Below, piece by piece: positions 5,698 to 38,034 of a DNA stretch of 64,000 nt (positions are counted from its first letter, which is position 1; each line of letters starts with the position of its first letter). Under the pieces are notes generated by a model, which was given only the letters and a program-made list of their open reading frames with translations, was not told the origin of the DNA and did not search any database. The position numbers were made by a program, and so were the translations under genes. Origin of the DNA: Armatimonadota bacterium (lineage in GTDB: Bacteria; Armatimonadota; SYMT01); assembly GCA_041690135.1 (NCBI GenBank), contig JAWLHY010000016.1:1-64000 (forward strand), written 5' to 3'.

Positions 5698-7782
5698 CTA
5701 GAGGAGGTGGCGCTTCAAGTAGCTTTCGTAAAGCCGGCAGCGGAGCCGCGCTTCTCGCGGAGCCTCACCCGAGAGAATACCAGACGCCCGCAGCCGATAG
5801 AACCCTTCCGGCGTCGGACAGGGATTGCCGCGCAGCACCTCTCGCAGTTGTTGCGTCAGTCCCGGGTCCTTACTCAGCAGCACCAGCATCCGCCGCAGGT
5901 GGTCTCCGTAAAATCCTTCCTCGCGATCCGCCTGTGCCTCGAACGCGTTGATATCCATCCCGCGCATGACCATCTCGTGGAGCCCGCGCCGCACCAGGTA
6001 CGGCTGACCGCTCAATACGCGGTAGAAACGGGCCGTCTCCGTCTCTCCCCGCAACGGAGCCCCATACCGCTGATTGAGGTCCTCCACCTGCTCGAAATGG
6101 AAGTCCTCCATCACCAGGCGGGTTCCCACGTTGAATGGGGACTGGTTGATGTCGGAGATGAACAGGTGGGCTTCCGTGGCGTAGGCAATGGCGAGCGTGA
6201 GCCGTGACCACGGCCCCGAGGGATCGAGGGATCGCTCGTTGTGCCAGGAGCGGAACAGTCCGAAGACCTCGCTGGCGTAATCCCGCTCAAAGAGCCGATC
6301 GACCTCGTCCATCGCCCACACCAACGGCTTCTCGATCTTGTTGAGCACCTCCCGGCGGAGATAGCGCTCGAAGTTCACGCTGGGCCCGCGGCGCTCGTTC
6401 CATACCGCGTCCGGGTAGACATCCAGGTCGAGCTGGTCCGCGATCCACTCGCCCAGGGCCAGGAAAAGGCTCTGGGCGGATTCTAGCTGGTTGGAGTTCA
6501 GCTTCTGGAAGTCGGTCGGGACGACCGTGGCCCCTCCCTGGCGGGCCTGGTGGAGTCCCCTCGCCAGGAGCGAGGTCTTGCCCATCTGCCGGGCGCCCTT
6601 GATGAGGATGATGCTGTCCTGGCGGGAGATCGCCGTCCGGAACTCGTCGTCGGTGTTCCGCACCACGTAGAACGTGGAGTCGAGCGGCACCGCTCCCCCC
6701 ACGGGCTCCAGTTTGGTGCGGGGCACTACCTTCACGGTCTCCGTCGGACCGGATAGTGCGACCTTCAAGTTGGCCAGTATGCGATCGGTATCGTCGTCCC
6801 CCTCCCACAGTGCGTACTCGATGGGGTCCAGAATGGGAGCCAGCGTTTCGGGAAGCGGACCGGTGAAATTGACCCGGATCGGCAGCAACTGCGGTTTTCC
6901 GCGATGCTGTGCTTCTTCGTTGGCGCTCTGGATTTCATAGGAGACCATTTCGCTCTGCACGGAAGCCTGCGACAACAGCGGAATGACCGCGTCCGAGGAG
7001 CGAATCTGGCGGTCGATCTCCGCCGCCCACTGCATCCCCACTACCAGGTTGCGGTCCACGAAGACGTCGTGACCGTGGGTCACCAGGAACTGCTCGATCA
7101 TCTTGAGCAGCTCTTCGTCCGGTTGAGCATCGCGTTTGTAAAGCAAGCACACTTTCAACCGACGTGAAGCAGCGAGGGCGGCCGGCGCGGAGATGATGAC
7201 CGTTCCGTGGGGGCGTAATTTCGTGGGGAGACGGGGATTGCCGACAGAACCGGTATAGAGGTTATAGAGCCAGAGCACTTCTCCATGCTTGACTTCACAC
7301 TTTCCCAGGTCCTGAAGGGGCCAGTGGCCGACCTGCGCCACCAGGTCGCGGTACTCGCGAGTTACGAGAATGTGCTTGGCGTCACCGCAGTCCATGACCC
7401 TTTGGGCATAATTGATGCCGCTCCCGGAAACGTTAGCGTTGGAGTTAATATCCTGCACCCGATAGACCGGTCCATGGTGGATGCCCATTCGCAGTTCAAC
7501 GTCGGGCAACTCTTCCACCGCTGCGGCAACCTGCATGGCACATTGGATGGGCGCCACCACGTCTCGGAAGAACACCAGCGCCATGCCATCTCCGGTGGGC
7601 AATGTAATCAGATCCCCCGTGGCTTCGGATCGCCGGTACTCCGGTGTACCACGCACCATCTGCTGGAGTTCACGCACTACGCGAAGCTGGAAGTCCATAG
7701 GCATCGCGGAGTACCCAACGATATCCATGAACAGGACACACGCTGGTTCGCTGGTGGGCGTAGGACTGGGGTGGACTGACAT
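5698..7782 (-). CDS. class III nucleotide cyclase + TIR + AAA_35-type ATPase
   Basis: [32 protein letters not shown] cyclase motifs; TIR ([21 protein letters not shown]); GARQMGKTS and WAMDEVD ATPase motifs. Confidence 0.85.
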
Positions 7783-7906
7783 GGACCGCACCTGCAAGGG
7801 AGAGGAGAAGACACAACCAAACGCCTTCCACTCTCCATTTTAACCTTGCGCGGGGCCAATCCCACAGTTCGTCTTGAGGTGTTTCTCGCCGTGGAAGCCC
7901 TAATGC

Positions 7907-14069: not shown

Positions 14070-14516
14070 ATGATCAGGCTCAACCTCGCCACCGACTACG
14101 CCTTGCGAACTCTGCTATACCTGGCAACTCAGCCGGGCAAACAGATCTCGACCCGCGAGATTGCCGAGTTCCACGGCATTTCCACCGACCACGTCAGCAA
14201 GGTGGTTCAGCACCTGGTGCACGCGGGCTACCTTCGAGCCGAGCGTGGGCGGCACGGTGGGCTGCGGCTGGCGCGGCCCGCGGAACAGGTCTCGGTGGGC
14301 GACGTGGTGGAGTTGTTCGAAGGCCCCGTTGCGCTGCTGGATTGCGTGAGCACCTCCGATGTGTGCGTCATTCAACCGGCCTGCCGCCTCCGGCGGGTGC
14401 TCGACCGCGCCGGCACTCGCCTGATCATGGAACTGCGTAAGGTAACCCTGGCTGACTTGATCGCCCCGCCCGCCGGGGAGCTGGTGCAGCTTGGGGAGAT
14501 GAGTGCCGAAGCCTAA
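14070..14516 (+). CDS. Rrf2-family Fe-S transcriptional regulator (NsrR-like)
   Basis: TDYALRTLLYLA, RG.HGGLRLARP; three Cys in DCVSTSDVCVIQPAC. Confidence 0.92.
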   Translation: MIRLNLATDYALRTLLYLATQPGKQISTREIAEFHGISTDHVSKVVQHLVHAGYLRAERGRHGGLRLARPAEQVSVGDVVELFEGPVALLDCVSTSDVCVIQPACRLRRVLDRAGTRLIMELRKVTLADLIAPPAGELVQLGEMSAEA

Positions 14517-14571
14517 CAACACCGTAGACGGGACAAAGTTGCCCCCTACCAGCCTCTGGAGACGCAGACCC

Positions 14572-15105
14572 ATGAATCGATCGAAGCTTTCCTGGGCGGT
14601 GCTTGCCGCCTCCGCCGCTGGCGTTATCGCCAGCATCTCGGTCGCCAGCCAGGCGACCGGGGCTGAAGAGCCGGTCGCTCCGAAGAAAATGACCCTGGAA
14701 CAGGCCCGGCGGACCGTGTCGATGCTGAACGATCTCTACGTCAACTCGGTGGTCGTGACGCACAGCACTTACGTTAAGGACCCGGGCACGCCGGCAGCGG
14801 CCGTAGTGGCACGCAAGGTATTCGAGGCGATGGCGGAGAAGGGCTGGCCCAAGACGCGCTGGCTCTCCACCACGGGTCGGCAATTCAACCCCGACGCAAA
14901 GCCGAAAGACCAGTTCGAGAAGGACGCGGTGGTGGCGCTTAAGAAGGGGCAGGCGCGGTTCGAGCGCGTGGAGAACGGCCAACTCCGCGTGGCCACCCTT
15001 ATTCCGCTGGTGGATAAGAGCTGCCAGATGTGCCACACCAAGGACAAGGTCGGCGATCCTATCGGCGGCCTCTCCTATACCATCGACCTGATCGGCAAGA
15101 AGTAA
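14572..15105 (+). CDS. exported c-type heme protein (DUF3365/Tll0287-like)
   Basis: signal peptide; FNPDAKPKDQFEKDA; CQMCH; GDPIGGLSY; RBS GGAG. Confidence 0.8.
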   Translation: MNRSKLSWAVLAASAAGVIASISVASQATGAEEPVAPKKMTLEQARRTVSMLNDLYVNSVVVTHSTYVKDPGTPAAAVVARKVFEAMAEKGWPKTRWLSTTGRQFNPDAKPKDQFEKDAVVALKKGQARFERVENGQLRVATLIPLVDKSCQMCHTKDKVGDPIGGLSYTIDLIGKK

Positions 15106-15147
15106 GCGTCTGCGTTGCAGGTGAGCCGCTTCGACAGGAGGAGTGGG

Positions 15148-15684
15148 ATGAGGAACGCACGCTTGGCTGTGGCGGTTGCCGGGGGAGTCGCTCTCCCGGC
15201 GCTGCTCTTCACGACCGTCCTGGCGGGCAACCCCGCGACCGCCGCGCCTCCAGCTCCTGTGCGCCTGGAACTGGAAGAGGCACGCCGCACCGTCCGGCTG
15301 ATGAACGACATCTACGTGACCGGGGTGCTCGTTACGCACGACATGTATGTGAAGGATCCCGGCAATCCCGCGGCTGTGAGTTGGGGGAAGCAGGTGATCC
15401 GCCAGATTCGCGCTAAAGGCTGGCCGGACGCCCACATCTTCGATACAACCGGACGCCCGTTAAATCCCGAGAACAACCCACAGAACCCCTTCGAGAAAGC
15501 GGCCGTGGCTGCTTTCAAGTCCGGTAAGAGCAGCTATGAAGAGGTCTCGGCGGAGTCCTACCGGTACGCGACGAGCATTCGGATGACCGACGAGAGCTGC
15601 CTGACGTGCCACGTGCGGGCCAAAGTGGGCGATCTGGTGGGAGGGATCAGTTACCTCGCGCCGCTAAAGCCCGCTCGGCGGTAG
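15148..15684 (+). CDS. exported c-type heme protein (DUF3365/Tll0287-like), paralog
   Basis: RBS AGGAGG; signal peptide; LNPENNPQNPFEKAA; CLTCH; GDLVGGISY. Confidence 0.8.
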   Translation: MRNARLAVAVAGGVALPALLFTTVLAGNPATAAPPAPVRLELEEARRTVRLMNDIYVTGVLVTHDMYVKDPGNPAAVSWGKQVIRQIRAKGWPDAHIFDTTGRPLNPENNPQNPFEKAAVAAFKSGKSSYEEVSAESYRYATSIRMTDESCLTCHVRAKVGDLVGGISYLAPLKPARR

Positions 15685-15802: not shown

Positions 15803-16648
15803 ATGGCATACGCACAGCGAGTGGATGGACGCAAAAAGGTCCGTCTGGCGGAGATCGACCCCCACGTCGACGGCGGGCTGAGTAAAGCCCAGGGCAAGCT
15901 GGAGCTTCAACAACTCGGGCAGGAGTTCGCCGAGCTCGAAGATCTCCTCTTCTACGCCAGCCACCACTCGCTGTTGATCATCCTCCAGGGGCGCGATACC
16001 GCGGGGAAAGACGGTGCGATCCGGCGAGTGCTGGAATTCAGCAACGCCCAATCGATCCGGGTCGTGCCGTTCAAGGTCCCTACGCCCCGGGAGCTGGCTC
16101 ACGACTTTCTCTGGCGCGTTCACCCGCATGCACCCGGACGGGGGATGACCGCCATCTTCAATCGCTCCCATTATGAGGACGTGCTGGTGAGCCGGGTCCG
16201 CGGGCTCGTTCCCCCGGAAGTGTGGGAGCGCCGGTACCAGCACATCAACCACTTCGAATCCCTGCTCCACGATAGCAACACGCTGATCCTCAAGTTCTAC
16301 CTGCACATCAGCAAGGAAGAACAGGAGCGGCGCCTCCTCGATCGAGAGAAGGAGACGGAGAAGGCCTGGAAACTTTCCGTCCAGGACTGGAAGGAGCGGG
16401 AGTACTGGGATGCCTACACCGCGGCCTACGAAGACGCCATCAACCGCTGCGCCACCCCGCACGCTCCCTGGTACGTGGTGCCTGCGGACCGGAAGTGGTA
16501 TCGGGACCTGGCGGTGATGCAGCGCATCGTCGAGGAGTTGCGGCCGCACCGGGAAACCTGGCTGCAAACTCTCCGCAAGATCGGTGACCAGGCGCTCGTG
16601 GAGCTACGGGCTTACCGCCAGTCACTCCAGGGCGGTGGCGGCGACTAG
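15803..16648 (+). CDS. ppk2: polyphosphate kinase 2 family (class III-like)
   Basis: LQGRDTAGKDG, FKVPT..ELAHDFLWR, FNRSHYEDVL, KFYLHISKEEQ, APWYVVPADRKWYR. Confidence 0.93.
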   Translation: MAYAQRVDGRKKVRLAEIDPHVDGGLSKAQGKLELQQLGQEFAELEDLLFYASHHSLLIILQGRDTAGKDGAIRRVLEFSNAQSIRVVPFKVPTPRELAHDFLWRVHPHAPGRGMTAIFNRSHYEDVLVSRVRGLVPPEVWERRYQHINHFESLLHDSNTLILKFYLHISKEEQERRLLDREKETEKAWKLSVQDWKEREYWDAYTAAYEDAINRCATPHAPWYVVPADRKWYRDLAVMQRIVEELRPHRETWLQTLRKIGDQALVELRAYRQSLQGGGGD

Positions 16649-17866
16649 GCGTGGGGAGGGAAAGGCGGCGGTGCGCGCGGCGGAGAAGAGGTCCTGGGCC
16701 GTGCGTCCGCTGTCCGGGAAGGTGGCCGATGCGGCATGCACCGGGCCTCCAATGATCTGATGGAGATGCTCGGCCAGCCGCACCGCTACCTGGCCGGCAA
16801 CCGTCCCCGTGTTCGGAAGGATTACCGTAAATTCGCGGTGGCCCGTGCGCGAAGGCACGTCCGCCTTGCGAATTCTCCGGCGCAAAGTTTGCGCGGCTTC
16901 GCGCACTACGTCTTCCGGACAATCGGCCGGTAGTTGCAGGCAGCAGACCGAGACGGACTGCCCTTCCCGCTGTGCCCGGCTGATTTCCTCATTCAGACGC
17001 CGGTCAAAATATTCCTTACCGTATAGCCCCGTCGATTCGTCCAGCACGGTTTCGTCGGGGGGGACGTCATTTGGGTGCCCCGCGGTGATCCGCTCGTGCG
17101 GTAATCGCTCGCGCATGTGCTTGAGCCCGTTCCGGAGCACGTAGCCAGCGTAGTTCACCGAAATGCCCAGGGCCCGCGCAATCTCACTCTGGTTGTTGTC
17201 CTGGAAGAAGAAGCGGCGAAGCACCTGCTGCTCGAGGTCCTTGAGCTTACAGAGGGCGTTCTCCAGCATCACGCGATCTTCGATCGGCAGCTCGAAAGTT
17301 ACGTAGTCGCGACTGCGGAACTTCTCCGGGTCGACTTCCATGAAGTCGTCGTCCCCGTCGTCGCTCCGGGTCTCCATCCGGAGGACCTGGACCGCTTGCC
17401 GGGCCGCGAACAACTCTTCCACGCCCTCCTCGGAGATGTTAGCCGCCCGAGCGATCTCCTCCACCGTGGGAGGGCGGTGCAGCCGCTGCTCCAATTCGGC
17501 GGAAATGCGCTGGACCTTGCTGTTGAGCTCCTGCAGCCATGCAGGCTGACGGATGAGATGCCCGCGATCCCGGAGGTAGTGTCGGATTTGCCCGGCAATG
17601 AGGTGGGTGGCAAAGGTGCTGAAGCGCGTGCCTCGCCCCGGCGTGTAGCGGTCCACCGCACGCACCAGGCCCACGTAACCTTCGCTCTCCAGGTCTTCCA
17701 GGGGTTCCCGTCCGGCAAACTTGCGGGCGATCGATCGCACCAGCGGACGCATGTGCTCGACGACTGCGTCGCGGATACGCCCGTCTCCGGTTCGCTGGTA
17801 CTCCGCCAGGAGCTCCGCCACCCGGGCATCGCTATAGGTCTGTCGGTCGCCCCGTCGTTCCAGCAT
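16622..17866 (-). CDS. SigB/SigF-type RNA polymerase sigma factor fused to a degenerate GGDEF domain
   Basis: regions 2-4: EDLESEGYVGLVRAVDRY..GRGTRFSTFA..I.GQIRHYLRD, RPPTVEEIA, NQSEIARALGIS; C-terminal DESTGLY..YFDRRLNEEISRAQR...RKADVPSRTGHREFTVILPNT. Confidence 0.88.
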   Translation of the reverse strand: MLERRGDRQTYSDARVAELLAEYQRTGDGRIRDAVVEHMRPLVRSIARKFAGREPLEDLESEGYVGLVRAVDRYTPGRGTRFSTFATHLIAGQIRHYLRDRGHLIRQPAWLQELNSKVQRISAELEQRLHRPPTVEEIARAANISEEGVEELFAARQAVQVLRMETRSDDGDDDFMEVDPEKFRSRDYVTFELPIEDRVMLENALCKLKDLEQQVLRRFFFQDNNQSEIARALGISVNYAGYVLRNGLKHMRERLPHERITAGHPNDVPPDETVLDESTGLYGKEYFDRRLNEEISRAQREGQSVSVCCLQLPADCPEDVVREAAQTLRRRIRKADVPSRTGHREFTVILPNTGTVAGQVAVRLAEHLHQIIGGPVHAASATFPDSGRTAQDLFSAARTAAFPSPRLVAATALE

Positions 17867-17992
17867 ATCCCTCTCGCCGCGCCTGCCCGGTCCGAAGACC
17901 GGATCCGGGGGCAGGGCTCAACATGCCAGGAGAGCCCTGCCCTGTTCCTCATCCAAACAAGGAGTTACAGCAACCGAGTTGCCGTGTCACTC

Positions 17993-19210
17993 CTACTTCT
18001 GGATGGCATTGATCAGGGTGAACATCGGCACCATAATCGAGCCGACGATGAAGCCGACGATCCCGCCCAGGAAGATGATGAGCGCCGGTTCGATGAGAGA
18101 GGTGAGCGCCTTGACGGCCACGTCCACCTCGTTGTCGTAGAAGGTAGCCACCTTCACAAGCATTTCGCTCATGCGTCCGGTTTCCTCGCCGATGTCCATC
18201 ATCTGCGTGACCATCTGCGGGAACCAGCCGCTTGCCGCCAGCGGAGCGCTGATTCGCTGCCCTTCCCGCACGCTGGCGCGGGCTTCTTCCACGGCCCGGG
18301 CGATGACGACGTTGCCGGCGGTCTCGGCCACAATCTCCAGGGCGCGCAGCACGGGGACGCCGCTGTTCACCAGCGTGCCCAGGGTGCGACTGAACCGGGA
18401 GATGGCCATCTTCAGCACCAGCTCGCCGATGACCGGAATGCGGAGTTTGAGCTTATCGAGGTTCCAATGCCCCTGCTCGGTGCGGTAGTACGCCTTCACC
18501 CCCATCACGGTGCCGAAGGGAATGAGCAGCAGCAAGTACCAGTGTGCGCGGATGAAGTCGCTGATCATGAACAGCATTTTCGTGATCAGCGGCAGTTCCG
18601 TACCGGAATCTCGGAAGATGTCCTTGAAGGTCGGAAGCACGAAGATGAACATCGCGATGACCATCAGGATCGCGAAGACCAGGACGCAGACGGGGTAGAC
18701 CATCGCGCCCTTGATGCGTCCGATCACCTCCTGCTCTTTTTCCAGGAAGGTCGCGAGGCGGTCGAGGATCAAGTCGAGGATACCGCCGACCTCGGCCGCG
18801 CGCACCATGCTGATGAACAACTTCGAGAAGACCTTGGGGTGCTTGCTGAGCGCGTCCGTGAGGCTCGAGCCGCCCACCACGTCCTTGCGGAGTTCGGTGA
18901 TGACCGGTTTGAGGACCGGGTCTTTGGTCTGGGCCTCGAGGATGTCGAGACACTTCAGGATATTGATGCCGGCGTTCACCATCGTAGCGAACTGCCGACT
19001 GAAGATGACGAGCGAGTTCAGCTTGACTTTGCCGCCCGCCTTCGCCCCGAAAAGCGACGACCCACCCGAGGCGCGACTTTCGGCGACGTCGACCACGGTG
19101 TAGTTCAGGGTCTGCAATTTGCTGAGCACAATCGCGGCGTTTTCGGCGTCAATCTTGCCCTTGACGACCCTTCCGCTCGGCTCCACGGCTTCATATGTAA
19201 ACGAGGGCAT
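17993..19210 (-). CDS. pilC: type IV pilus platform protein PilC (GspF family)
   Basis: FSRQFATMVNAG, MVRAAEVGG.LD.IL.RLA, YP, FSRTLGTLVNSGVP, GEETG.M..ML, LIEP. Confidence 0.95.
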   Translation of the reverse strand: MPSFTYEAVEPSGRVVKGKIDAENAAIVLSKLQTLNYTVVDVAESRASGGSSLFGAKAGGKVKLNSLVIFSRQFATMVNAGINILKCLDILEAQTKDPVLKPVITELRKDVVGGSSLTDALSKHPKVFSKLFISMVRAAEVGGILDLILDRLATFLEKEQEVIGRIKGAMVYPVCVLVFAILMVIAMFIFVLPTFKDIFRDSGTELPLITKMLFMISDFIRAHWYLLLLIPFGTVMGVKAYYRTEQGHWNLDKLKLRIPVIGELVLKMAISRFSRTLGTLVNSGVPVLRALEIVAETAGNVVIARAVEEARASVREGQRISAPLAASGWFPQMVTQMMDIGEETGRMSEMLVKVATFYDNEVDVAVKALTSLIEPALIIFLGGIVGFIVGSIMVPMFTLINAIQK

Positions 19211-19563
19211 CCGTAAATACTCCGTCCAGGCGTGCGTCTAGCCGTCTGTTATCTTTCGGGATTCTGGCGCGCTACCCACTGCTTCTTTAGGGCCTTCGGT
19301 CGAATCAGGTGGGATGACAAGACCTTTTGTCGTCGCACGCGGGGAAAGAGCGGCCAGGGAGTGCAGAAGCAGCGGGAGTGAGGGTGAGAGTGGGAGAAGG
19401 CGTCGGAACGGCGGGCGTGAGTGTGGGGAGGGAGCAAGCGCAGGATTAGGAGTAAGAGTTGGAAACAGGAACGCGGGACGGGAGGGGTGGCAGGTGGATG
19501 CGGCTGGCGGGGAGAGGACGGGGCCGGAGCGACGCGGTCGCCGTTCCGGCCAGGGAGCGCTCT

Positions 19564-20727
19564 CTAAAGCTGGGCGTAGCTCTTGAGGAGACGGTTAAAG
19601 GTATCGGGGTCGAGGCTGGAAGCGCGAGCGTTCTCCGTGGTGATGGTGCCCATACGCACGAGGTTGACGAGGGCCTTATCCAGCGTCTGCATACCACTCT
19701 GCGCGCCGATTTCCATACAGGAGTACAGCTGGTCGGTGCGGCCCTCCCGGATCAGATTCCGGACGGCGCTGTTTGCCAGCATGATCTCCACGGCGGGCAC
19801 CCGCCCGCCGCCCGTACGTGGAAGCAGTTGCTGGGCCACCACGGCCTCGAGGGCATTGGCAAGCTGGACCTTGATCTGGTCTTGCTGATAGGGCGGAAAG
19901 ACATCGACGATGCGGTCGATGGTCTGCGGCGCGTTCCGGGTGTGAAGGGTGGCAAACACCAGGTGGCCCGTTTCGGCCAGCGTAATGGCGGAGGAAATGG
20001 TGATCAGGTCACGCATTTCCCCGACCAGGATCACATCGGGGTCCTCGCGCAGAATCGAGCGCAGAGCATTGTCGAAAGTGTGGGTGTCCTGGCCGAGCTC
20101 CCGCTGGTGAATCATCGCCTTCTTGTGGCTGTGCAGGTACTCGATCGGGTCCTCGATCGTCATGATGTGACAATCCCGCTCGTTGTTGATGATGTCGATC
20201 ATACTGGCGAGCGTGGTGGACTTGCCAGCGCCGGTGGCACCGGTCACCAGGATCAAGCCGCTGGGCTTCCGGGTGAGCTCCCGCAGGAGCGGCGGCAGGC
20301 GCAGTTCCTCGAGCGTCGGCACTTTCGTGGGAATCGCCCGTAGCGCTGCCCCGATAACGCCGCGCTGGCGGTAGACGTTGAACCGGTACCTCCCCACCCC
20401 AATCAGCCCATAGGAGAAGTCCAGTTCGTAGTTCTTCTCGAACGTCTGGATCTGCTGGTTGGTGAGCACTTCGTAGACGAGCCGCTGGACATCCATGTTG
20501 GTGAGCGGCTCGTAGTTGAGGCGCACCAGCCGGCCGTCGAGACGCACGACCGGCGGGAGACTCACCGAGAGATGGATATCCGAAGCGCCGCGCTGGCCGG
20601 CCTCCACGAGGAGATCGTCGATGTGGAGGTCACCAATGGGAAGTGCGGCATTCCCGGGGACCTGGGAGCCGAGGTCCAGGGGATTCGACAACGGTTCCTG
20701 AAGCCAGTTACCCACTGTAAATGACAC
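19564..20727 (-). CDS. pilT: type IV pilus retraction ATPase PilT
   Basis: ASDIHL, GATGAGKSTT, TIEDPIEY, LREDPDVILVGEMRD, AETGHLV.ATLH, AVRNLIRE, GMQTLD; GTG start with GGAGGAG RBS overlaps the pilB 3' end. Confidence 0.95.
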   Translation of the reverse strand: MSFTVGNWLQEPLSNPLDLGSQVPGNAALPIGDLHIDDLLVEAGQRGASDIHLSVSLPPVVRLDGRLVRLNYEPLTNMDVQRLVYEVLTNQQIQTFEKNYELDFSYGLIGVGRYRFNVYRQRGVIGAALRAIPTKVPTLEELRLPPLLRELTRKPSGLILVTGATGAGKSTTLASMIDIINNERDCHIMTIEDPIEYLHSHKKAMIHQRELGQDTHTFDNALRSILREDPDVILVGEMRDLITISSAITLAETGHLVFATLHTRNAPQTIDRIVDVFPPYQQDQIKVQLANALEAVVAQQLLPRTGGGRVPAVEIMLANSAVRNLIREGRTDQLYSCMEIGAQSGMQTLDKALVNLVRMGTITTENARASSLDPDTFNRLLKSYAQL

Positions 20728-22432
20728 GCAGGGTCTCCTCCAAAGTGGTAATGCCGAGCAAGACCTTTTCAGTCGCGTCGGACTTGAGCGTCACCATGCC
20801 GTTGCGGATGGCGGCCTCGCGGATACGGTGCCCACTCTCGCGGTTCAGCGCGAGATCGCGGACCTCGTCGTTGACGGCCATCAGCTCATAGATTCCCGTC
20901 CGTCCCTTGTAACCGGTGCCCTTGCAGTACTCGCAGCCGCGTCCGCGGTAGAACTTGACGCCCTGCGTGTTCTCCGACGTGAGCCCCAGGCGACGGACCG
21001 CATCCATCGGCGGCTGGTAGGCCATTTTGCAGCGGGGACAGATGACGCGGGCCAGGCGCTGGGCGAGCACCCCGACGACCGCGGAGGAGATCAGGAACGG
21101 CTCCACCTCCATATCCAGGAGGCGCGCAATAGCACCGGGTGCGTCGTTGGTGTGGAGCGTCGAAAGCACCAGGTGGCCGGTCAGCGCCGCTTCTACGGCG
21201 ATCAGCGCCGTTTCGCCGTCTCGGATCTCACCGACCATGATGATGTTGGGGTCCTGGCGGAGCATACACCGCAGACCGGCCGCAAAGGTGAGCCCGGCGC
21301 GGGGGTTCACCCCGACCTGCGTGATTCCCGGCAATTCGTATTCCACCGGATCCTCAATGGTGAGGATGTTCTTCTCGGTGCTGTTGAGCTTGGAGAGCAC
21401 CGAGTAAAGGGTCGTGGATTTACCGGATCCGGTGGGCCCCGTTACGAGAATGATGCCGTAGGTTCGCTGGATCAGGTTCTCGAACTGCTCCAGCGTCTTG
21501 GGCATGATCCCGAGCCGGTGGAGGCCAACGCTAATGGCGCTCTTGTCGAGAACGCGGAGCACCACCTTTTCCCCGAATACGGAGGGCAGGGTGGAAACGC
21601 GGTAGTCCCACTGCTTGCCTTCCACCATCAGGCTGATGCGTCCGTCCTGTGGGGCGCGCTTCTCCGCAATGTCCATCGAGGCCATGATTTTGATGCGGGA
21701 GACCAGGGACTGCTGCACCTTCTTAGGCAGTTGCATCTGTTCCTGGAGGATGCCGTCAATGCGGTAACGCACGCGCATTCCCTCGCGAGTCGGCTCGATG
21801 TGGATGTCGCTGGCTCCGTCCTTGACCGCCTGGCCCAAGATCAGGTTCGACAGGCGTACGACCGGCGCTTCATCGACGAGTTCGCGTAGCTGGCTCTCGC
21901 TGACTTCCGTTTCATTATCCATCGAGGCCGTGGTGACCTCGATGCTGTCGATGTCAATGTCTTTGAGCGCGTTCTGGACTGCCTGCTGCGAGGTGCCGTC
22001 GTCCGCATAGAAGCGCGAGATGGCGCTGAGGATGTCCTCTTCCTCGGCCATCACGGGTTCCACATCGAGCCCCAGAATCAGGCGCAGGGCGTCGATGGCG
22101 TAAATATCGTTCGGCTCCTTCATCGCGACCACGACCCGGCCATTCGGGCGCGAGATGGGGATCGCTTTGTAGCGGCGGCAGATCTCCTGGCCGACGGAAC
22201 GCACGATATCGTTGTCGACGGGGAAAGAATCGAGCTCTACGAACTCGACCCCCCACTGCTCGGCGAGGCACCGCAATTTGTCCCGCTGGGAGAGGTATCC
22301 CATGCTGACGAGGGTATCCCCGAGGGCCTCGTTGGTGGGAAGGCCGCTTTGTGCTTCCAGGGCGGTATTGAGCTGTTCCCGGGTGATATAGCCTTTGGAG
22401 ACGAGAATCTCCCCCAATTGCATCCTGGCCAT
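20708..22432 (-). CDS. pilB: type IV pilus extension ATPase PilB with MshEN-like N-terminus
   Basis: ASDIHIEP, DIAEKRAPQDG, GPTGSGKSTT, LRQDPNIIMVGEIRD, Zn site CPRC...CEYC. Confidence 0.95.
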   Translation of the reverse strand: MARMQLGEILVSKGYITREQLNTALEAQSGLPTNEALGDTLVSMGYLSQRDKLRCLAEQWGVEFVELDSFPVDNDIVRSVGQEICRRYKAIPISRPNGRVVVAMKEPNDIYAIDALRLILGLDVEPVMAEEEDILSAISRFYADDGTSQQAVQNALKDIDIDSIEVTTASMDNETEVSESQLRELVDEAPVVRLSNLILGQAVKDGASDIHIEPTREGMRVRYRIDGILQEQMQLPKKVQQSLVSRIKIMASMDIAEKRAPQDGRISLMVEGKQWDYRVSTLPSVFGEKVVLRVLDKSAISVGLHRLGIMPKTLEQFENLIQRTYGIILVTGPTGSGKSTTLYSVLSKLNSTEKNILTIEDPVEYELPGITQVGVNPRAGLTFAAGLRCMLRQDPNIIMVGEIRDGETALIAVEAALTGHLVLSTLHTNDAPGAIARLLDMEVEPFLISSAVVGVLAQRLARVICPRCKMAYQPPMDAVRRLGLTSENTQGVKFYRGRGCEYCKGTGYKGRTGIYELMAVNDEVRDLALNRESGHRIREAAIRNGMVTLKSDATEKVLLGITTLEETLRVIYSG

Positions 22433-22578: not shown

Positions 22579-23295
22579 TTAACCTTGCGGCGGGGTTAAC
22601 GTCGCGTCGATCGGCGCGGCAGCGGCGGCCTCATCCTTCTTCCCGAGGGTCACGAAGTACTTGTCGGTGCCGTTGATCAGAAGAATGCCGTCCATCGCGA
22701 TCTTTTTCACCCGGTAGTTATTGGCTACTACGTCGCCGACCTGAAGGATGCGTCGATCCTTTCCGTCCAGCACCGCCAGCGCCATATCGTCGCCGTCTTC
22801 CACGTCGATGACACCGGTAAGCACCACGGTCGGCCGCACCGGTCCGGGAGGCGGCGCCGGGGTAATGACGGAAGGCTGCGCCGGCGGCAGACCTTCGTTC
22901 CCTCCCAGGCTAGGCAGGCCTTCGAAGGTAGGCCACTTCGGCAAACGAGCCGTCCGCGTGGGCGCGGGTGCCGGTGCCGGAGCGGGCGCGGGGGGCGGCG
23001 TGGCCACGGGTTTGCCGGTCTTGAGCGGACGGAACGGATCGGGATTGAAAGTCCCCGGCAACTGGAGGCCCGGAGCACCCGTCTGGGTGATCTGCACGCC
23101 CGCTTCCGCTTCCGGCGTGGTGGACGTCGCTCCGGCCGGCTCACTGGTAGCTGAAGCCTGTTCGGCGGCAGGCGCCGGCTTCTTCTCCCCTCCGACGGCC
23201 TGCATTACCCCGTAGCCGAGCACCCCCACGCAAAGAACGCCGAGGACGATGACCTGGGGCATCTGCTTTTGATCCAGCTTCTCAAACTTTGCCAT
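22579..23295 (-). CDS. PilP/GspC-like pilus assembly protein (TM anchor, Pro-rich linker, beta domain)
   Basis: position after pilO; N-terminal TM; PDPFRP; LTGVI...ALAVLDG...VGDVV...YRVKKI. Confidence 0.65.
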   Translation of the reverse strand: MAKFEKLDQKQMPQVIVLGVLCVGVLGYGVMQAVGGEKKPAPAAEQASATSEPAGATSTTPEAEAGVQITQTGAPGLQLPGTFNPDPFRPLKTGKPVATPPPAPAPAPAPAPTRTARLPKWPTFEGLPSLGGNEGLPPAQPSVITPAPPPGPVRPTVVLTGVIDVEDGDDMALAVLDGKDRRILQVGDVVANNYRVKKIAMDGILLINGTDKYFVTLGKKDEAAAAAPIDATLTPPQG

Positions 23296-23999
23296 TAGTT
23301 GATCCCTCCGGAGGCGGCAATCGCCGTGGTGGTCGGCTTGGCGGTCGTGGGCTCCTTCATAATGAAGGCGGTCAGGCGCAGGTCCACGTCCAGGAGCGCC
23401 GCGCTCTCATCCCTTTGCACACCCCCTTCGGCCCGGTGCGGTCGCAGCTGCATTTCTTCCACGGCAAGAATCTTGGGGAAGCGCGTCAGGTGGTCCGTAA
23501 AGGCCTGAACGGTGCGGTAGCTGCCGACCATGTTCACCTGGATGCCCAGCCGGGTGTAAGGCTCGGGAGCCTTCGTTTCTTCCTTCTTGTCGCCCTCTTG
23601 CTTGTCCCCGTTGGCCTGTGCCTCGGGGTCGCGGCGCTGCTGAAGGCGCGTCGGTGCTTCCTGCACCACCTGCGGGCGCACACCGATCACCCGATTGTTG
23701 GTGTTGATCGCCAACTCTTCCAACTGCTTCAGCAGGGTGGGCACGAACGCCGCGTCGGAAACGGCCGTCTCCAGGAACTGGAGCTTGGCCTGGTCCGCCT
23801 CCAGGTCGAGGCGGGCCTGCTCGCGCCGCTTGGCGATTTTACGACCCTCGGTGACTTCCACTTCTTTCCGCCCCAGGGTGGCACGGGCACTGGTGAGCAC
23901 CGACTGCTGCCAGTAGACGACCCCACCGAAAAGCAGGAGCATCAGAGCCACCCCGCCGCCGAGGATGTAGATGGTGGTCTTAGTTGGTTTTAGTCGCAT
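23295..23999 (-). CDS. pilO: type IV pilus assembly protein PilO
   Basis: TM + coiled coil + VPTLLKQLEELA...GSY...F...L.RFPKILAV; synteny. Confidence 0.85.
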   Translation of the reverse strand: MRLKPTKTTIYILGGGVALMLLLFGGVVYWQQSVLTSARATLGRKEVEVTEGRKIAKRREQARLDLEADQAKLQFLETAVSDAAFVPTLLKQLEELAINTNNRVIGVRPQVVQEAPTRLQQRRDPEAQANGDKQEGDKKEETKAPEPYTRLGIQVNMVGSYRTVQAFTDHLTRFPKILAVEEMQLRPHRAEGGVQRDESAALLDVDLRLTAFIMKEPTTAKPTTTAIAASGGIN

Positions 24000-24582
24000 C
24001 CCCTTCTCCTGGCTTCGCGGCTTCTTCGGGTTGGCTCAACATGGCGGCCAGCTCGAACTCGACGTTCTCACGGTCCTGCAGTTTGATGGTCTGGGTGTAG
24101 CGCAGGTCCACCTTCTGGTAGTGCTCCGCCTGCTGCGTGAGACGATACATCGTCTCGCCCACTCGGGACTGGTTGGCCGTGATGCCGTTGACGCGAATGG
24201 ACATCTCGCCTTCGCCGCCGCGCTCCACGGAGAGGCTCGTGAGCCAGGTCTCTTCCGGAACGGCTCGCTTCATGCCTTCCATAATCCCGTACCACCGGCG
24301 GGTCCGGGCCTGCGCTTCCGTAAGGGTTTCGAGCTTGGGAACCAGGCGGCGCCGGGCTTCTTCATCGGTCTTGATCTGGTCCAGGATGGGATTCAGCTTG
24401 GCCAGTTCTTCGTCGAGACCCCGAATGGCCTGGTTGGTCCCGACGATGTGCGCCGTCTGGAAAGCCACGCCTCCCAGCCCGATACCAGAAGTTGCGATCG
24501 CCGCAAACATGAGCCCTTTGGCGATCTTGGTCAACCGGACCCGCTCCGCGCGCCGCGTGGAAATCAGGTTGATATTGGCCAT
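23980..24582 (-). CDS. pilN: type IV pilus assembly protein PilN
   Basis: MANINLI (INLL-type PilM-binding motif), TM, coiled coil, VPEETWLTSL; TGATG coupling to the pilM stop. Confidence 0.88.
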   Translation of the reverse strand: MANINLISTRRAERVRLTKIAKGLMFAAIATSGIGLGGVAFQTAHIVGTNQAIRGLDEELAKLNPILDQIKTDEEARRRLVPKLETLTEAQARTRRWYGIMEGMKRAVPEETWLTSLSVERGGEGEMSIRVNGITANQSRVGETMYRLTQQAEHYQKVDLRYTQTIKLQDRENVEFELAAMLSQPEEAAKPGEGDATKTN

Positions 24583-25670
24583 CAGTTGTACTCCTTCAGG
24601 GCGAGCCCGGTCGCGACTGCGAGTTCCGGTCCCCGAGAATGCCACTCGGTGGAGACGGCGCGATCACGGAACGGATCCAGCGTCTGGACGTCGATGCCTA
24701 GGCGCTCGCGGAGGTATTCGGGGAGCCCGGGAAGCTGGGTGCCGCCACCCGCCAGTACGAGCTGCTCGACGGCCACTGCCATGCCTGCTTCGGCCGCCTG
24801 GGACTGGAAGTAAATGATGGAACGCCGCAGCTCGCGGATCAGTTCGTCCACGAACGGGAGCGTCACCTGGCGGCCGGGATCCGGCGAATGGAGCATGCCC
24901 ATCTCCGCCATTTCCTGGCTGGAGAGCGGCGTGATATCGATGTGGCGCTTGTGCTGCTCCGCTTCGTCGCCGGGCACGTTCATCACGGACGCGATACTGG
25001 AGGTGAGTGCGTTCCCGCCGATCGGGATCGAGCGGGTTACGGCGACCTCGCTGCCTACCACGATATTCAGGTCCGTGTAGGTGGCGCCCATATCCATGAC
25101 GACCGTGGCCTGTCCGGGTGGCGGCATCAGGCCGGAAGCTTCCATCGAACGGAGGAGGGCGAAGCATTCCACATCGACAGCCACCGGCTCCAGCCCCGCG
25201 CCTTCGATGACGTTGACGCGCCCGTTGACCATCGGCAACGGCGCGACCACCAGCAGCACGTCGAGCTGAGCCGGACTACCACTACGCCCGAGGACTTCAT
25301 ACTCGAGGGCGCTGTTGTCGATGGACACCCCACTGGTGCCCTGATCAACGTGCTTTGCGGCCTCGAAGCGGATCGAGCGCTTGAGGGTGGCGGCGTTCAT
25401 GTCCGGCACCTTGATGGAGCGCACGAGCACGTGCGAGCCGGAGACCGCCGCGATGGTGTCCGTGGTCGGAATGCGCGCGTCGCGGAACAACTGTCGCACG
25501 GCCTCCGTGACGCGGGGCACGTCGAGAATGACACCGTCTTGGACCGCTTCGGGTGGCGTGTTGATGATCCCTGCGTTAATCAGAGACCATCTCCCGCGGC
25601 CCCGCTCCAGGTGAACGGCCTTGATCTGGCTGCTCCCTATATCCAGCCCCACCACACTACTGGCGGCCAT
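24582..25670 (-). CDS. pilM: type IV pilus assembly protein PilM
   Basis: VGLDIGSSQIKAV, DMGATYT, RSIPIGG, ELRRSIIYF, LAGGG..LPGL, AVATGLAL. Confidence 0.95.
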   Translation of the reverse strand: MAASSVVGLDIGSSQIKAVHLERGRGRWSLINAGIINTPPEAVQDGVILDVPRVTEAVRQLFRDARIPTTDTIAAVSGSHVLVRSIKVPDMNAATLKRSIRFEAAKHVDQGTSGVSIDNSALEYEVLGRSGSPAQLDVLLVVAPLPMVNGRVNVIEGAGLEPVAVDVECFALLRSMEASGLMPPPGQATVVMDMGATYTDLNIVVGSEVAVTRSIPIGGNALTSSIASVMNVPGDEAEQHKRHIDITPLSSQEMAEMGMLHSPDPGRQVTLPFVDELIRELRRSIIYFQSQAAEAGMAVAVEQLVLAGGGTQLPGLPEYLRERLGIDVQTLDPFRDRAVSTEWHSRGPELAVATGLALKEYN

Positions 25671-25780: not shown

Positions 25781-26187
25781 TGGGACGAGACCAGCGGCGT
25801 TACCTCAACCCGGCCCCGTCCGTCTCCGGTGTTCGGCCCCGGCAGGGCTCTTTCCCGGCTGCGAACCGATTATTGGCAGAGTTTCTCCTCACCTAGAGGG
25901 GGGCCTTGGATCGGGGCGGCATGGCAGTTAGAAGGAAGCGGCCCGGTGCAGGATACCCCCAGGAGTAGCAAGGCGATTACATCTCAAGTAGTAGAATAGC
26001 CGGCCTGGCAAATGAGAGCAAGAATTGCGATTGGGGCAGAGCTGCCGCCGCGCCGCCGGTAAGTCTTGGGGTCGGCGTGGGACGCGGTCGGCAACGAACC
26101 GCGAGGCGAGGCAGTGTGGGGGGATGGGAATGCGGTGGTCGCCGCTGCAGCAACCACCGCATTCGCCGGTCTAACAACGCTTCGGAG

Positions 26188-30545: not shown

Positions 30546-30757
30546 GGTGCAAATCCCTTTTCAAGTGCTCCATTGTCCTGGGCTCCATCCCATGGGTAGG
30601 TGCACATCCGGCCTACGGCGGTGTTTTGTACCCGTGCGTGCGCGAGGGAAACACCCGCCCTCGACAAATTCTGAAGCCACCGGCACTCCTCGAGAAAAGG
30701 GGGTACGCGTACCCCTCTTCTCTGATCTATCGAATGTGCGCCGGGTCGCTTCCAACG

Positions 30758-34171: not shown

Positions 34172-34196
34172 CTACCCACAATTCGCGCGGAAAAAC
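34172..34196 (-). promoter_or_regulatory. putative SigB/SigF-type promoter
   Basis: minus strand GTTT-N15-GGGTAG about 170 nt upstream of the Gre-like gene. Confidence 0.45.
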
Positions 34197-36188: not shown

Positions 36189-37205
36189 GTGATGAGAGAA
36201 GCCCCCACCTTTCCGGCATCCCCCGAGTCCTCATCCGACGGGAATTCGGTCCCCTCTTCCTCTCCTCACACGGCACCAGGTCCGGTGGCGATTGTGGAGA
36301 TTCCAATCGAGCATCTCGCGCCCGACCCATTTCAGCCACGGTCGCGCTTTACCGAGGAAACAATCCGGCAATTGGCCGAGTCGATCCACCACCACGGGGT
36401 CCTGCAACCCCTACTGCTGCGTCCGATGCAGGGTCCGAACAGCCGCGAGCGTTATTGGATCGTGGCCGGAGAGCGGCGTTATCGCGCCGCACAACTCCTG
36501 GGGCTCAAGACTCTCCCCTGCCGGGTGATGCCCTATGAGAATCTGGCGGCGGCCGTAATCGCCCTGGCGGAAAACGTGCACCGGGAGGACCTCAGCGAGA
36601 TTGACAAGGCCGCGGCGTTGCTCCGCCTCAAGACGCTGACCGACCGCACCTGGGATGAGGTGGCGGAAATCGTGAAACTTTCTCGGGACTATGTGAAACG
36701 GCTAGCCGGGCTGTTGCGGCTGGAGCAAGCCGTACAGGAGCAGGTTCGCAATGGGCTGATCTCCGTGCGCACGGCGATCGCCTTACGTCCCCTGGAGGCA
36801 CGGCAGCAGGTGGAGATGGCCGAAAGGGTAATCAGGGAGGGTCTCACGGCCGAACAGGTCCGCGAGGAAGTGGCCCGGCGCCGCGCCGCGCGCTCCGGAA
36901 AGAAACGCGGGCAGAGCGAAGATCCCGCCGGAACTGCCGCGGCGACCGAGAAGGCAAACGCGCGTCCCACTAAGGTGACCGGTCGCCTTGAACAGTACAC
37001 CGAGATCATTCGCGAGATCGATACCTGGCTGGAAAGCCGGGAGTGGGCCCCCAGCCGGGTCAGCGAGCGCCAACGAGCACGGCTGGAAGACCTTTATGAG
37101 GGAGTCAGCCTGCTCCAGCAGCAACTGGCGGCCATCCGGCGCGGTCTCCGGGATGCGGAAGTTTCCGATGCGGAGAAGCTACGTCGCGTGGATCTTCCCT
37201 TCTAA
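36189..37205 (+). CDS. ParB/Spo0J-family protein
   Basis: PDPFQPRSRF...LAESI..HGVLQPLLLR, IVAGERRYRAA (Box II), ALAENVHREDL; start uncertain. Confidence 0.9.
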   Translation: MMREAPTFPASPESSSDGNSVPSSSPHTAPGPVAIVEIPIEHLAPDPFQPRSRFTEETIRQLAESIHHHGVLQPLLLRPMQGPNSRERYWIVAGERRYRAAQLLGLKTLPCRVMPYENLAAAVIALAENVHREDLSEIDKAAALLRLKTLTDRTWDEVAEIVKLSRDYVKRLAGLLRLEQAVQEQVRNGLISVRTAIALRPLEARQQVEMAERVIREGLTAEQVREEVARRRAARSGKKRGQSEDPAGTAAATEKANARPTKVTGRLEQYTEIIREIDTWLESREWAPSRVSERQRARLEDLYEGVSLLQQQLAAIRRGLRDAEVSDAEKLRRVDLPF

Positions 37206-37206
37206 G

Positions 37207-38034
37207 TCAGGTGAGGAGAGCGCGAAGACGAGAGAGCGCGCGGCGTTCGAGACGAGAAACGTGCATCTGGGAGATGCCCAGTTTCGCCGCGACTTCGCCC
37301 TGGGTGGCCTCGCCAAAGAAACGCTCCTGGATGATCCGGCGTTCCCGTTCATCCAGGCAGGAGAGGGCCTGCGCGATAGTTTCGCGGATCTCCAGCGACT
37401 CGAACGCCGGCTCTTCCGTCCCGATCGCATCCAGGTAGTGGCCGCTGCGGTCATCATCCTCCCAGGTCCGTGAGTCCAGGGAGACCGGATAGTAGAGGAG
37501 GTCGACCTCCATCGCCTCGATGACACGCTCTTCCGGCGCCTCTACCGCGCGGGCCAATTCGGCGGTGGTGGGGCTCCTTCCCAATTCCTGTTCGAGAGTC
37601 AGGCGCACCACCCGGATGCGGTTCGCCAGCTCTCGCAAGCGACGTGGCGCGTAAACGAACCAGGTATGATCGCGCAGGTAATGCTTGATCACCCCCACGA
37701 TCGTCGGCATCGCGAAGGAGGTGAAGCTGAGACCGAGATCCGGGTCGTACCGTTCGATGGCGGCGATCAGCCCAATATAGCCGACCTGAAGGAGATCTTC
37801 CGAGGTGACGGCCTCTCCGGGCGAAAAGCGACCCGCGAGAAAACGCACGAGACGAGTGTGGCGGAGTACGATCTCGTTCCGCAGCCGGAGGTCCCGGGTC
37901 CGATGATAGGTACGTAACAATCGCTCGCATTCCCGCCGCTCACGCGCGAGGGCGGTGTTTTCTGCCTCCGTGCGAGGCGTGCGCGCGACATCGCGTAGGG
38001 GTGGGCGCCCAGGAACCCGATTTGCTTGGTGCAT
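37207..38034 (-). CDS. SigB/SigF/SigG-family RNA polymerase sigma factor
   Basis: EDLLQVGYIGLIAAIERYDP..G.SF.SFAMPTIVG.IKHYLRD, PRRLREL, RSPT.AELA, TQGEVAAKLGISQMHVSRL. Confidence 0.93.
   Translation of the reverse strand: MHQANRVPGRPPLRDVARTPRTEAENTALARERRECERLLRTYHRTRDLRLRNEIVLRHTRLVRFLAGRFSPGEAVTSEDLLQVGYIGLIAAIERYDPDLGLSFTSFAMPTIVGVIKHYLRDHTWFVYAPRRLRELANRIRVVRLTLEQELGRSPTTAELARAVEAPEERVIEAMEVDLLYYPVSLDSRTWEDDDRSGHYLDAIGTEEPAFESLEIRETIAQALSCLDERERRIIQERFFGEATQGEVAAKLGISQMHVSRLERRALSRLRALLT

Follow-up and report, generated by a model that had tools for sequence, protein, structure and literature searches.

A sigma factor fused to a degenerate GGDEF domain beside pilC in Armatimonadota, a candidate direct reader of c-di-GMP

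The DNA analysed here, hereafter the window, is a stretch of 64,000 nucleotides (positions 1 to 64,000 of contig JAWLHY010000016.1, assembly GCA_041690135.1) from an Armatimonadota bacterium (lineage SYMT01). At the end of a type IV pilus gene cluster it carries a gene, called sigma-GGDEF below, that encodes a sigma factor continuing into a degenerate GGDEF domain, the fold of diguanylate cyclases. This domain has a dead active site and keeps the RxxD motif of the I-site (inhibitory site), at which cyclic di-GMP (c-di-GMP) would be held. We propose that sigma-GGDEF may be the first sigma factor to read c-di-GMP itself, an I-site cross-link freeing or withholding it, and that it would form the last, c-di-GMP-gated tier of a cascade from sigma-28 to sigma-GGDEF that ties the expression of pilus and flagellum to the motile-sessile choice across Armatimonadota. 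We give this proposal as a whole a probability of about 0.45, and the strength of its separate parts is stated with the evidence that bears on them.

A sigma factor running in frame into a GGDEF fold

The window's 9.1-Mb genome contains one sigma-GGDEF copy, plus 20 other sigma-paralog matches. As the initial annotation had proposed, sigma regions 2 to 4 run in frame into a GGDEF fold, Pfam detecting region 2, region 3, region 4 and GGDEF along the chain (Table 1); the three sigma regions, all above the Pfam cut-off and in this order, correspond to group 3 of the sigma-70 family. Region 2 is the best-conserved part of the sigma-GGDEF family, and a family-specific signature, IRQPAWLQE, occupies region 2.4/3.0.

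The same annotation had called the sigma part SigB/F-type, a view that stands for its nearest neighbours and fails for subfamily membership: the best NCBIfam matches are the SigF and SigBFG models (E 4e-48 and 4e-46) and the nearest solved chains are SigB/SigF-type sigmas (8x6g_H and 1l0o_C), but the subfamily cut-offs are missed (TIGR02980, 157.7 versus 234.35; PRK07408, 164.3 versus 261). The FliA/WhiG cut-off (TIGR02479) is missed as well, with 95.4 to 97.2 bits against 189.6, and identity amounts to 28-29% with the FliA-like paralogs of the genome and to 35-38% with the SigB/F-like ones. The generic sigma-70 model TIGR02937 was the only one passed (78.3 against a cut-off of 42.9), no NCBIfam model being dedicated to this family, and sigma-GGDEF belongs to neither the SigB/F nor the FliA subfamily. 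It resembles SigB, SigF and SigG, the sigmas of RsbW/SpoIIAB partner switching, in its best sequence matches and in the possession of regions 2, 3 and 4, but departs from them in these scores, in its signature, in the lack of an adjacent RsbW-type gene and in its C-terminal sensor domain. On such sequence features, we favour the view that the protein is a functional group-3 alternative sigma factor with a receptor-type GGDEF domain at its C-terminus.

Loss of the cyclase site in a recognisable GGDEF domain

The Pfam GGDEF match (residues 275-379, E 9e-12, 45.5 bits versus a cut-off of 23.8) spans just profile positions 3-117 of 161. Searched on their own, the C-terminal 153 residues match solved diguanylate cyclases, such as DgcR (6zxm, E 2e-8) and PleD (1w25, E 3e-7), with RKADVPSRTGHREF of sigma-GGDEF aligned with RAIDLPCRYGGEEF of PleD. 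A 10-residue gap falls on the D-x-FK-x-x-ND-x-x-G segment of PleD, DgcR and a Geobacter GGDEF protein (6d9m), and the active site reads GHREF in place of GG(D/E)EF, with RxxD (here RKAD) five residues upstream; these two motifs, residues 333-336 and 342-346, map exactly to 16870-16829, where they had first been noted. With this hairpin, the deleted metal/GTP segment and no canonical site in any of the 165 relatives described below, the domain is non-catalytic by sequence, as had been predicted.

Folded alone with AlphaFold2 (AF2), the C-terminal domain (C-domain) yields a predicted local distance difference test score (pLDDT) of 90.8 and a predicted template-modelling score (pTM) of 0.84. The Foldseek neighbours of this model, 96 matches at E <= 0.001, are all GGDEF domains, and those of MorA, a T. 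maritima protein, PleD, WspR and DgcR reach template-modelling scores of 0.70-0.75. The full-length model has confidently predicted domains (mean pLDDT 87) and a disordered linker at residues 260-270.

The helix arginine R363 is placed on a conserved arginine both by the DgcR alignment and by the GGDEF domains of the genome itself, and R297, in the first helix, pairs with the arginine of PleD 'lvkRat' in the pairwise alignment. The relevant PleD residues, which we take to be R359, D362, R390 and R313, were tied to the alignment via chain indices. The domain is similar to PleD, WspR and DgcR in fold, in RxxD position and probably in conserved arginines, which presumably cross-link domains through c-di-GMP in those proteins. 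It differs from them in lacking a catalytic motif, as well as a receiver or stalk helix for catalytic dimerisation, and in being attached to sigma region 4 through a flexible linker.

Conservation of the I-site signature across the family

Conservation was assessed in the 165 fused members, out of 267 proteins, that cover the motif region. None has GG[DE]EF, [GAS]G[DE]EF or D..F[KR]..ND, and the hairpin positions vary freely, with D, E, P or H at position 2 and R, A, G or T at position 3. RxxD stands five residues before the hairpin in 165/165, R333 is present in 162, D336 in 163 and R363 in 158; the first helix contributes R290 (159 members), E294 (162) and R297 (162). The conservation of RxxD in orthologues, which had been set beforehand as a test, is therefore borne out. 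Together with P384, these are the only C-domain positions conserved at 95% or more, in a family that averages 56% identity to the query over the sigma part and 38% over the C-domain. Conservation confined to six charged residues and one proline is the pattern of a ligand site, not of a protein core. A second, independent set of 61 genome-cut domains showed the same invariants, with RxxD in all 61.

The segment between strand 1 and RxxD measures 42 residues in 50 members, which is the canonical length with a degenerate sequence, and 32 residues in 65 members, the window's clade included; the 10-residue deletion is accordingly a later, clade-specific step. Within the window's genome, all ten canonical GGDEF domains carry RxxD with the same spacing and nine have an arginine in the R363 column, whereas the sole other degenerate GGDEF (contig 15) has lost RxxD, which makes the motif ancestral and dispensable for the fold. 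Its retention throughout the phylum after the loss of catalysis is consequently an argument for function. The alignments make it rather likely that the common ancestor of the sigma-GGDEF family had lost the cyclase active site and, with similar likelihood, that the I-site (RxxD plus a candidate helix arginine) has been retained under strong selection.

An old family in Armatimonadota, absent where cyclases are absent

A word-indexed protein search gave 311 matches, 120 of which were examined for precomputed Pfam lists; at least 110 proteins carry PF00990 beside sigma domains (110/120 among the matches listed), the source names among the matches listed being Armatimonadota, Fimbriimonadales, Chthonomonas, 'bacterium HR15 SigF' and one Actinomycetota label. 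Further members came from an exhaustive search of 1.84 billion representatives, and more than 160 distinct proteins display the same architecture. Named genomes with the fusion belong to Chthonomonadales, Fimbriimonadales, Armatimonas, Capsulimonadaceae, Abditibacteriales, Ca. Hebobacterum and Zipacnadia. Two metagenome-assembled genomes labelled Actinomycetota contain the closest relatives (66% and 58% identity), and the matches outside the phylum (Vulcanimicrobiota) are restricted to the sigma part.

In 301 sampled genomes of the phylum, 219 match at E <= 1e-40, nearly always with one copy each. This number was rejected as a count of fusions because the two genomes checked in family f32 hold plain sigma paralogs only (262-290 amino acids); after removal of the 18 f32 matches, about 200/301 genomes remain, a partly checked figure that assumes all 18 to be unfused and all other families to be fused. 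Counting with a C-domain profile failed, since canonical GGDEF domains score equally (about 1e-36). In genome family f5 (G003 and G019), which carries a true but divergent branch of the fusion, the proteins have 473-485 amino acids and the Pfam GGDEF match is absent in two of two; by hhalign, the C-domain of one is homologous (probability 98.3%, E 2e-14) and keeps RAVD, with a five-residue insertion between RAVD and the hairpin. An assembly artefact or a pseudogene was rejected because the fusion is conserved, occupies single open frames and is found on contigs as long as 4.8 Mb, and its recurrence in so many proteins and genomes establishes it as genuine. The family is old, near-universal and mostly single-copy in Armatimonadota.

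The c-di-GMP machinery of the window's genome comprises 10 strong GGDEF, 1 EAL and 2 PilZ matches. Across the sample, where a strong GGDEF match means E <= 1e-25, a threshold that leaves out the weak-scoring fused domain itself, the fusion occurs in 0/23 genomes without such a match versus about 200/278 with one. These 23 cyclase-less genomes span at least 13 genera and about 12 families, with relatives that are not independent, and 19 of the 20 with a listed completeness are at least 90% complete. Such repeated joint absence of cyclases and fusion is what a c-di-GMP-dependent protein predicts.

Two other explanations of the conserved site have to be confronted with these data. In the first, the dead GGDEF would need no ligand and would mediate dimerisation, docking or auto-inhibition, for instance with a pilus-machine protein as partner, and the structure of the domain or its contacts with proteins would account for the retention of RxxD. 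Degenerate GGDEF domains can be protein-interaction modules according to excerpts of PMC5635695, and the tight pairing of the pilC and sigma genes (see below) would suit a physical link. However, the best-conserved residues are the I-site arginines and aspartate, with no hydrophobic patch, the fold does not need RxxD, as the other degenerate GGDEF of the genome illustrates, and the fusion is missing from every sampled genome that lacks cyclases; we consider a ligand-free domain improbable. In the second, the I-site-like pocket would bind another nucleotide, namely GTP, (p)ppGpp, cyclic GMP-AMP (cGAMP) or another cyclic dinucleotide. A 2025 structure of PleD (9g85) holds ppGpp plus c-di-GMP, according to part of its record, and excerpts of PMC6456294 describe Hypr-GGDEF enzymes that produce cGAMP. 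Against this, the segment for GTP binding has been deleted or has degenerated, a c-di-GMP I-site is marked by RxxD together with the helix arginine and the co-absence is with GGDEF cyclases, so that we attach very little credence to a different nucleotide. For c-di-GMP itself, binding at R333, D336 and R363 would be the better bet given the residues conserved.

A conserved pair with pilC

On the minus strand, the genes follow the order pilM, probable pilN, pilO, an unknown gene, pilB, pilT, pilC and sigma-GGDEF (Table 1), and the coordinates agree with the original placement of the gene 126 bp downstream of pilC, on the same strand and at the end of the pilus cluster. The synteny with pilC, for which the initial annotation had suggested a check, proved to be frequent: of 20 diverse genomes analysed with 7-kb flanks, 14 have pilC immediately upstream in the same orientation, 1 has it in divergent orientation and 5 lack it there, and among 100 further fused loci, 96 of them evaluable, the same-strand upstream arrangement recurs in 61, with pilC divergent in 3 and unlinked in 32 (mostly Chthonomonadales, Abditibacteriales and Capsulimonadaceae). 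In G005 and G021, the closest relatives, pilM-pilB are found on a separate contig while pilC and sigma are kept together, which identifies the pilC-sigma pair as the conserved unit. The spacer between both genes ranges across relatives from a 4-bp overlap to about 230 bp, with a frequent stem-loop, and we found no conserved sequence motif in the pilC-sigma spacers of relatives. Co-occurrence of the fusion with PilC is uninformative because PilC is present in 298/301 genomes.

An anti-sigma gene had been reported as absent from the vicinity, which holds for the RsbW type (HATPase_c_2), the one kind searched for; the nearest HATPase_c_2 match on the contig is weak and located at C16:127229. The closest sigma paralog (C8:325321) has an RsbW-like gene directly upstream, and its absence at the fusion fits a sensor in cis that replaces partner switching.

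Two other genes of this region deserve mention. PilB has an N-terminus with two tandem 24-residue MshEN-like repeats, xLGxxLVxxGY[IL]xxxxLxxxLxxQ, in which Q or A replaces the leading arginine of what we take to be the published MshEN c-di-GMP motif. A PPK2 polyphosphate kinase gene (15803-16648, plus strand) converges on sigma-GGDEF, the 3' ends overlapping by 27 bp.

Sigma-28-class promoters at pilM and at stand-alone copies

Footprinting upstream of pilM in five genomes of family f1, to which the window's site belongs (Table 1), revealed the conserved sequence TA(A/G)G-N16-CTGCC(A/G)ATAAT. The same promoter class lies about 60-170 nt before stand-alone sigma-GGDEF copies. The -10 box alone, G[CG]C[AG]ATAA, occurs in 18/35 of their upstream regions versus 10/564 control windows, and an unbiased profile upstream of it returned CCCTAAAG at -35. 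Stand-alone copies, pilM and flagellin genes thus share a sigma-28-class promoter, CCCTAAAG-N14-CTGCCGATAAT. We scanned for both boxes with the pattern TA[AG][AG]-N16-18-C[GA]ATAAT, which is absent from 752 control windows and present upstream of pilM in 5/5 genomes of family f1, at 3/8 flagellin genes of flagellated relatives and at 10/35 stand-alone fusion genes, although the perfect sites among the latter come largely from genus g20 and Chthonomonadales and the counts are not independent events. It was detected in 1/45 regions upstream of pilC and 0/59 pilC-sigma spacers. The site upstream of pilC in family f1, CCTAAAGA-N15-GCCAnAAT, combines the pilM-type -35 box with a different -10 box, and is also found in the other genomes of this family seen there (G005, G021 and G048). 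The two-box pattern matches the sigma-28 consensus, TAAA / GCCGATAA, quoted in a passage of PMC8325347.

Sigma factors of the FliA/WhiG type score above the curated NCBIfam cut-off in the five genomes tested (240-265 bits), and the window's genome has two (247.5 and 242.9 bits). FlhA is absent from this genome and from G021 and present in three flagellated relatives. The two FliA/WhiG-type genes (C3:299176-299853 and C2:507838-508506) are both located beside prepilin N-methyl/DUF1559 genes; one immediately follows a PilC-like T2SSF gene, forming a second 'pilC then sigma' pair, and a PilZ gene is found 4 kb from one of them. In the flagellated relative G176 (C2:1021887-1042047), a stand-alone fusion gene lies on the same contig as flhA, about 17 kb away.

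With sigma-28-class promoters and bona fide FliA/WhiG factors in 5/5 genomes, the fusion gene appears to be controlled by the motility hierarchy and is probably a sigma-28 target. Most simply, flagellin, pilM and the fusion gene would all be transcribed by a true sigma-28, the fusion then acting one tier below. These same promoters and sigmas give no support to the idea, put forward in the initial annotation, that the fused sigma transcribes the pilus genes.

That idea would be rescued if the fused sigma itself read the TAAAG-N-GCCGATAAT promoters, regulating its own gene and directly driving pilM, pilC and perhaps flagellin; c-di-GMP would then act at the pilus promoters, as originally pictured. 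Such promoters do stand directly before stand-alone copies at the frequencies given above, positive autoregulation is frequent among alternative sigmas, the sigma-GGDEF gene is embedded in pil clusters and the window's genome and G021 have kept the promoter at pilM despite the lack of FlhA. Nevertheless, the promoter fits the classic sigma-28 consensus of PMC8325347 in the passage quoted, all five genomes have true FliA/WhiG sigmas, the two of the window's genome being next to pilin and PilC-like genes, the fusion reaches 95 bits on the FliA_WhiG model and is nearer to SigB/F models and paralogs, and flagellin, the canonical FliA target, bears the same promoter. We regard reading by the fused sigma itself as unlikely, and retain sigma-28 as the probable driver.

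Genome-wide scans with strict sigma-28 patterns gave 7 and 6 matches, no more than expected by chance (a shuffled genome gave 13), so that no regulon can be derived from the window's genome alone. The genome has many SigB/F-like paralogs, and a SigB-type pattern (GTTT-N12-17-GGGTA) has four matches in the window where about one is expected, none of them in the pil cluster; they lie at 182-207 on the plus strand and at 30629-30652, 34173-34196 and 63202-63226 on the minus strand. Scans for sigma-70 promoters and terminators produced nothing decisive. In Chthonomonadales (L013, L056-L058, L065, L068 and L070), a block containing CGATGGGCACGAACGC is conserved about 30-40 nt before the extrapolated start of the fusion, and may represent the true start codon with a conserved N-terminal peptide.

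A putative c-di-GMP switch and the points against it

RxxD I-sites bind c-di-GMP in PleD, WspR and the receptor PopA, according to excerpts of PMC12564702. By analogy, intercalated c-di-GMP would bind the I-site of the dead GGDEF domain of sigma-GGDEF and cross-link this domain to a second arginine-rich surface, as in product-inhibited cyclases. The second surface could be the R290-E294-R297 helix of another copy or part of the sigma body; this stripe occupies what we take to be the position of the secondary I-site in PleD and WspR. The cross-link would change the ability of the sigma to join core RNA polymerase, and our guess for the direction, by analogy with the RsiG-WhiG switch discussed below, is that high c-di-GMP would turn the sigma off. 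The gene would usually be co-transcribed with pilC, the stand-alone copies being driven by the sigma-28-class promoter; its expression would probably depend on a FliA/WhiG sigma, sigma-GGDEF representing a later, c-di-GMP-dependent tier. As judged from sequence, this sensor design probably lets c-di-GMP act directly on the sigma factor.

Several observations weigh against this model. RxxD is ancestral, so that its mere presence is no argument and only its retention after the loss of catalysis counts, and arginines of the R297 and R363 types are common to GGDEF domains generally. The pairwise alignment with PleD is ambiguous for R363, which it places one helical turn before the position we take to be that of R390. 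The full-length AF2 model (pTM 0.44) does not define a fixed way for the C-domain to pack against the sigma part. Part of the co-loss with cyclases could be due to an overall shrinkage of the signalling gene repertoire, at least 59 sampled genomes have cyclases and no fusion, and, since PilC is found in nearly all genomes and the fusion in fewer, the latter is dispensable for pili.

Relation to known c-di-GMP receptors and sigma factors

Sigma-GGDEF resembles PopA of Caulobacter and SgmT of Myxococcus, as portrayed in excerpts of PMC12564702 and PMC3509222, respectively, in its dead cyclase site, in an RxxD located five residues before the former GG(D/E)EF hairpin with a candidate helix arginine, and in a GGDEF domain that serves as a sensor fused to an output module, a role which here is predicted from sequence. 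What differs is the output, a complete sigma factor with regions 2-4 in place of the receivers, the GAF domain with membrane segments or the histidine kinase found in PopA, PelD and SgmT, and the window's clade has also lost 10 residues of the GTP/metal segment. PelD of Pseudomonas presumably belongs to the same receptor-type class of degenerate GGDEF domains.

A functional parallel may be offered by the RsiG-(c-di-GMP)2-sigma WhiG switch of Actinomycetota (Streptomyces and Rubrobacter), which controls a sigma factor and pilus genes according to passages of PMC8325347. In both systems c-di-GMP would set the availability of a group-3 alternative sigma, and Rubrobacter RsiG-WhiG is tied, in those passages, to type IV pilus genes and sigma-28-type promoters, much as Armatimonadota have TAAAG-N-GCCGATAAT promoters before pil genes. 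In RsiG-WhiG, as described there, a distinct coiled-coil protein, the anti-sigma, holds the messenger and its partner is a WhiG/FliA-type sigma, whereas sigma-GGDEF would sense c-di-GMP through a GGDEF fold covalently attached to a non-WhiG sigma, and the fused gene seems to stand downstream of a WhiG/FliA-type sigma.

In its presumed regulation in cis by its own C-terminal domain, sigma-GGDEF can also be compared with extracytoplasmic function (ECF) sigmas that carry C-terminal extensions. In groups such as ECF41 and ECF42, cis regulation replaces a separate anti-sigma; these group-4 sigmas lack region 3, their extensions are SnoaL-like or of the TPR type, and no nucleotide messenger is involved.

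To our knowledge, c-di-GMP influences transcription by way of transcription factors, riboswitches or a single anti-sigma (RsiG). The earlier remark that no described example was known agrees with our search of the full-text literature, which yielded no description of a sigma-GGDEF fusion, supplements and subscription journals being outside its scope and tables of GGDEF censuses being places that could list it. A sigma-fused receptor was likewise not met in excerpts of a 2025 review of c-di-GMP effectors (PMC12564702). New here are the promoter class, the co-absence profile with cyclases, the clade-specific deletion and the corrected phyletic count. If the proposal is true, it would represent the shortest possible path from a second messenger to promoter choice and a new form of cis regulation of a sigma factor, in a family that is a near-universal signature of a poorly studied phylum with cultured members (Chthonomonas, Fimbriimonas and Armatimonas). 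The promoter result sets the sigma-GGDEF gene within the motility hierarchy, and sigma-28-type promoters serve pilus genes of Armatimonadota even in genomes without the flagellar export gate, in parallel with Rubrobacter.

Features of the window

Table 1. Coordinates of the sigma-GGDEF gene, its encoded domains and residues, and the neighbouring pilus genes and promoter-like sites in the window
Feature	Position	Strand	Details
sigma-GGDEF gene	16622..17866	-	Open reading frame, 414 amino acids + stop codon
Sigma-70 region 2, residues 36-102	17561..17761	-	Pfam PF04542, E 6.2e-17
Sigma-70 region 3, residues 113-172	17351..17530	-	Pfam PF04539, E 2.8e-12
Sigma-70 region 4, residues 204-252	17111..17257	-	Pfam PF04545, E 2.8e-9
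Flexible linker, about residues 256-274	17045..17101	-	AF2 pLDDT <50 at residues 260-270
Degenerate GGDEF-fold domain, residues 275-402	16661..17044	-	Pfam PF00990, AF2 and Foldseek
R297, first helix	16976..16978	-	Part of the conserved R290-E294-R297 stripe
RxxD (RKAD), I-site motif, residues 333-336	16859..16870	-	
Degenerate active-site hairpin GHREF, residues 342-346	16829..16843	-	Pairs with GGEEF of PleD
R363, helix arginine	16778..16780	-	Same column as the 'aeRir' arginine of canonical GGDEF domains
pilC-sigma spacer	17867..17992	-	126 bp, two hairpins, no U-tract; minimum free energy -59.4 kcal/mol, z -2.85
pilC (T2SSF platform protein)	17993..19210	-	Pfam PF00482, E 1e-62
Promoter-like site CCTAAAGA-N15-GCCAGAAT	19261..19291	-	81 nt upstream of pilC
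pilT	19564-20727	-	
pilB	20708-22432	-	With MshEN domain
pilO	23295-23999	-	
pilM	24582-25670	-	
Sigma-28-class promoter-like site TAGG-N16-CTGCCAATAAT	25869..25895	-	Starts 225 nt before the pilM ATG

Elsewhere in the window, a gene at 5698-7797 (minus strand) encodes a 699-amino-acid protein with a partial adenylate/guanylate-cyclase-like match, a TIR domain and an AAA_35 ATPase, an architecture that resembles a defence-like or signalling STAND (signal transduction ATPase with numerous domains) protein. The region 14070-15684 (plus strand) contains a gene for an Rrf2-family regulator followed by genes for two paralogous Tll0287-like proteins with CxxCH haem motifs. Two of the SigB/F-like sigma paralog matches, at 37201-37926 (minus strand) and at C4:37970-38707, contain an in-frame TGA, which could correspond to a pseudogene, a sequencing error or a split gene.

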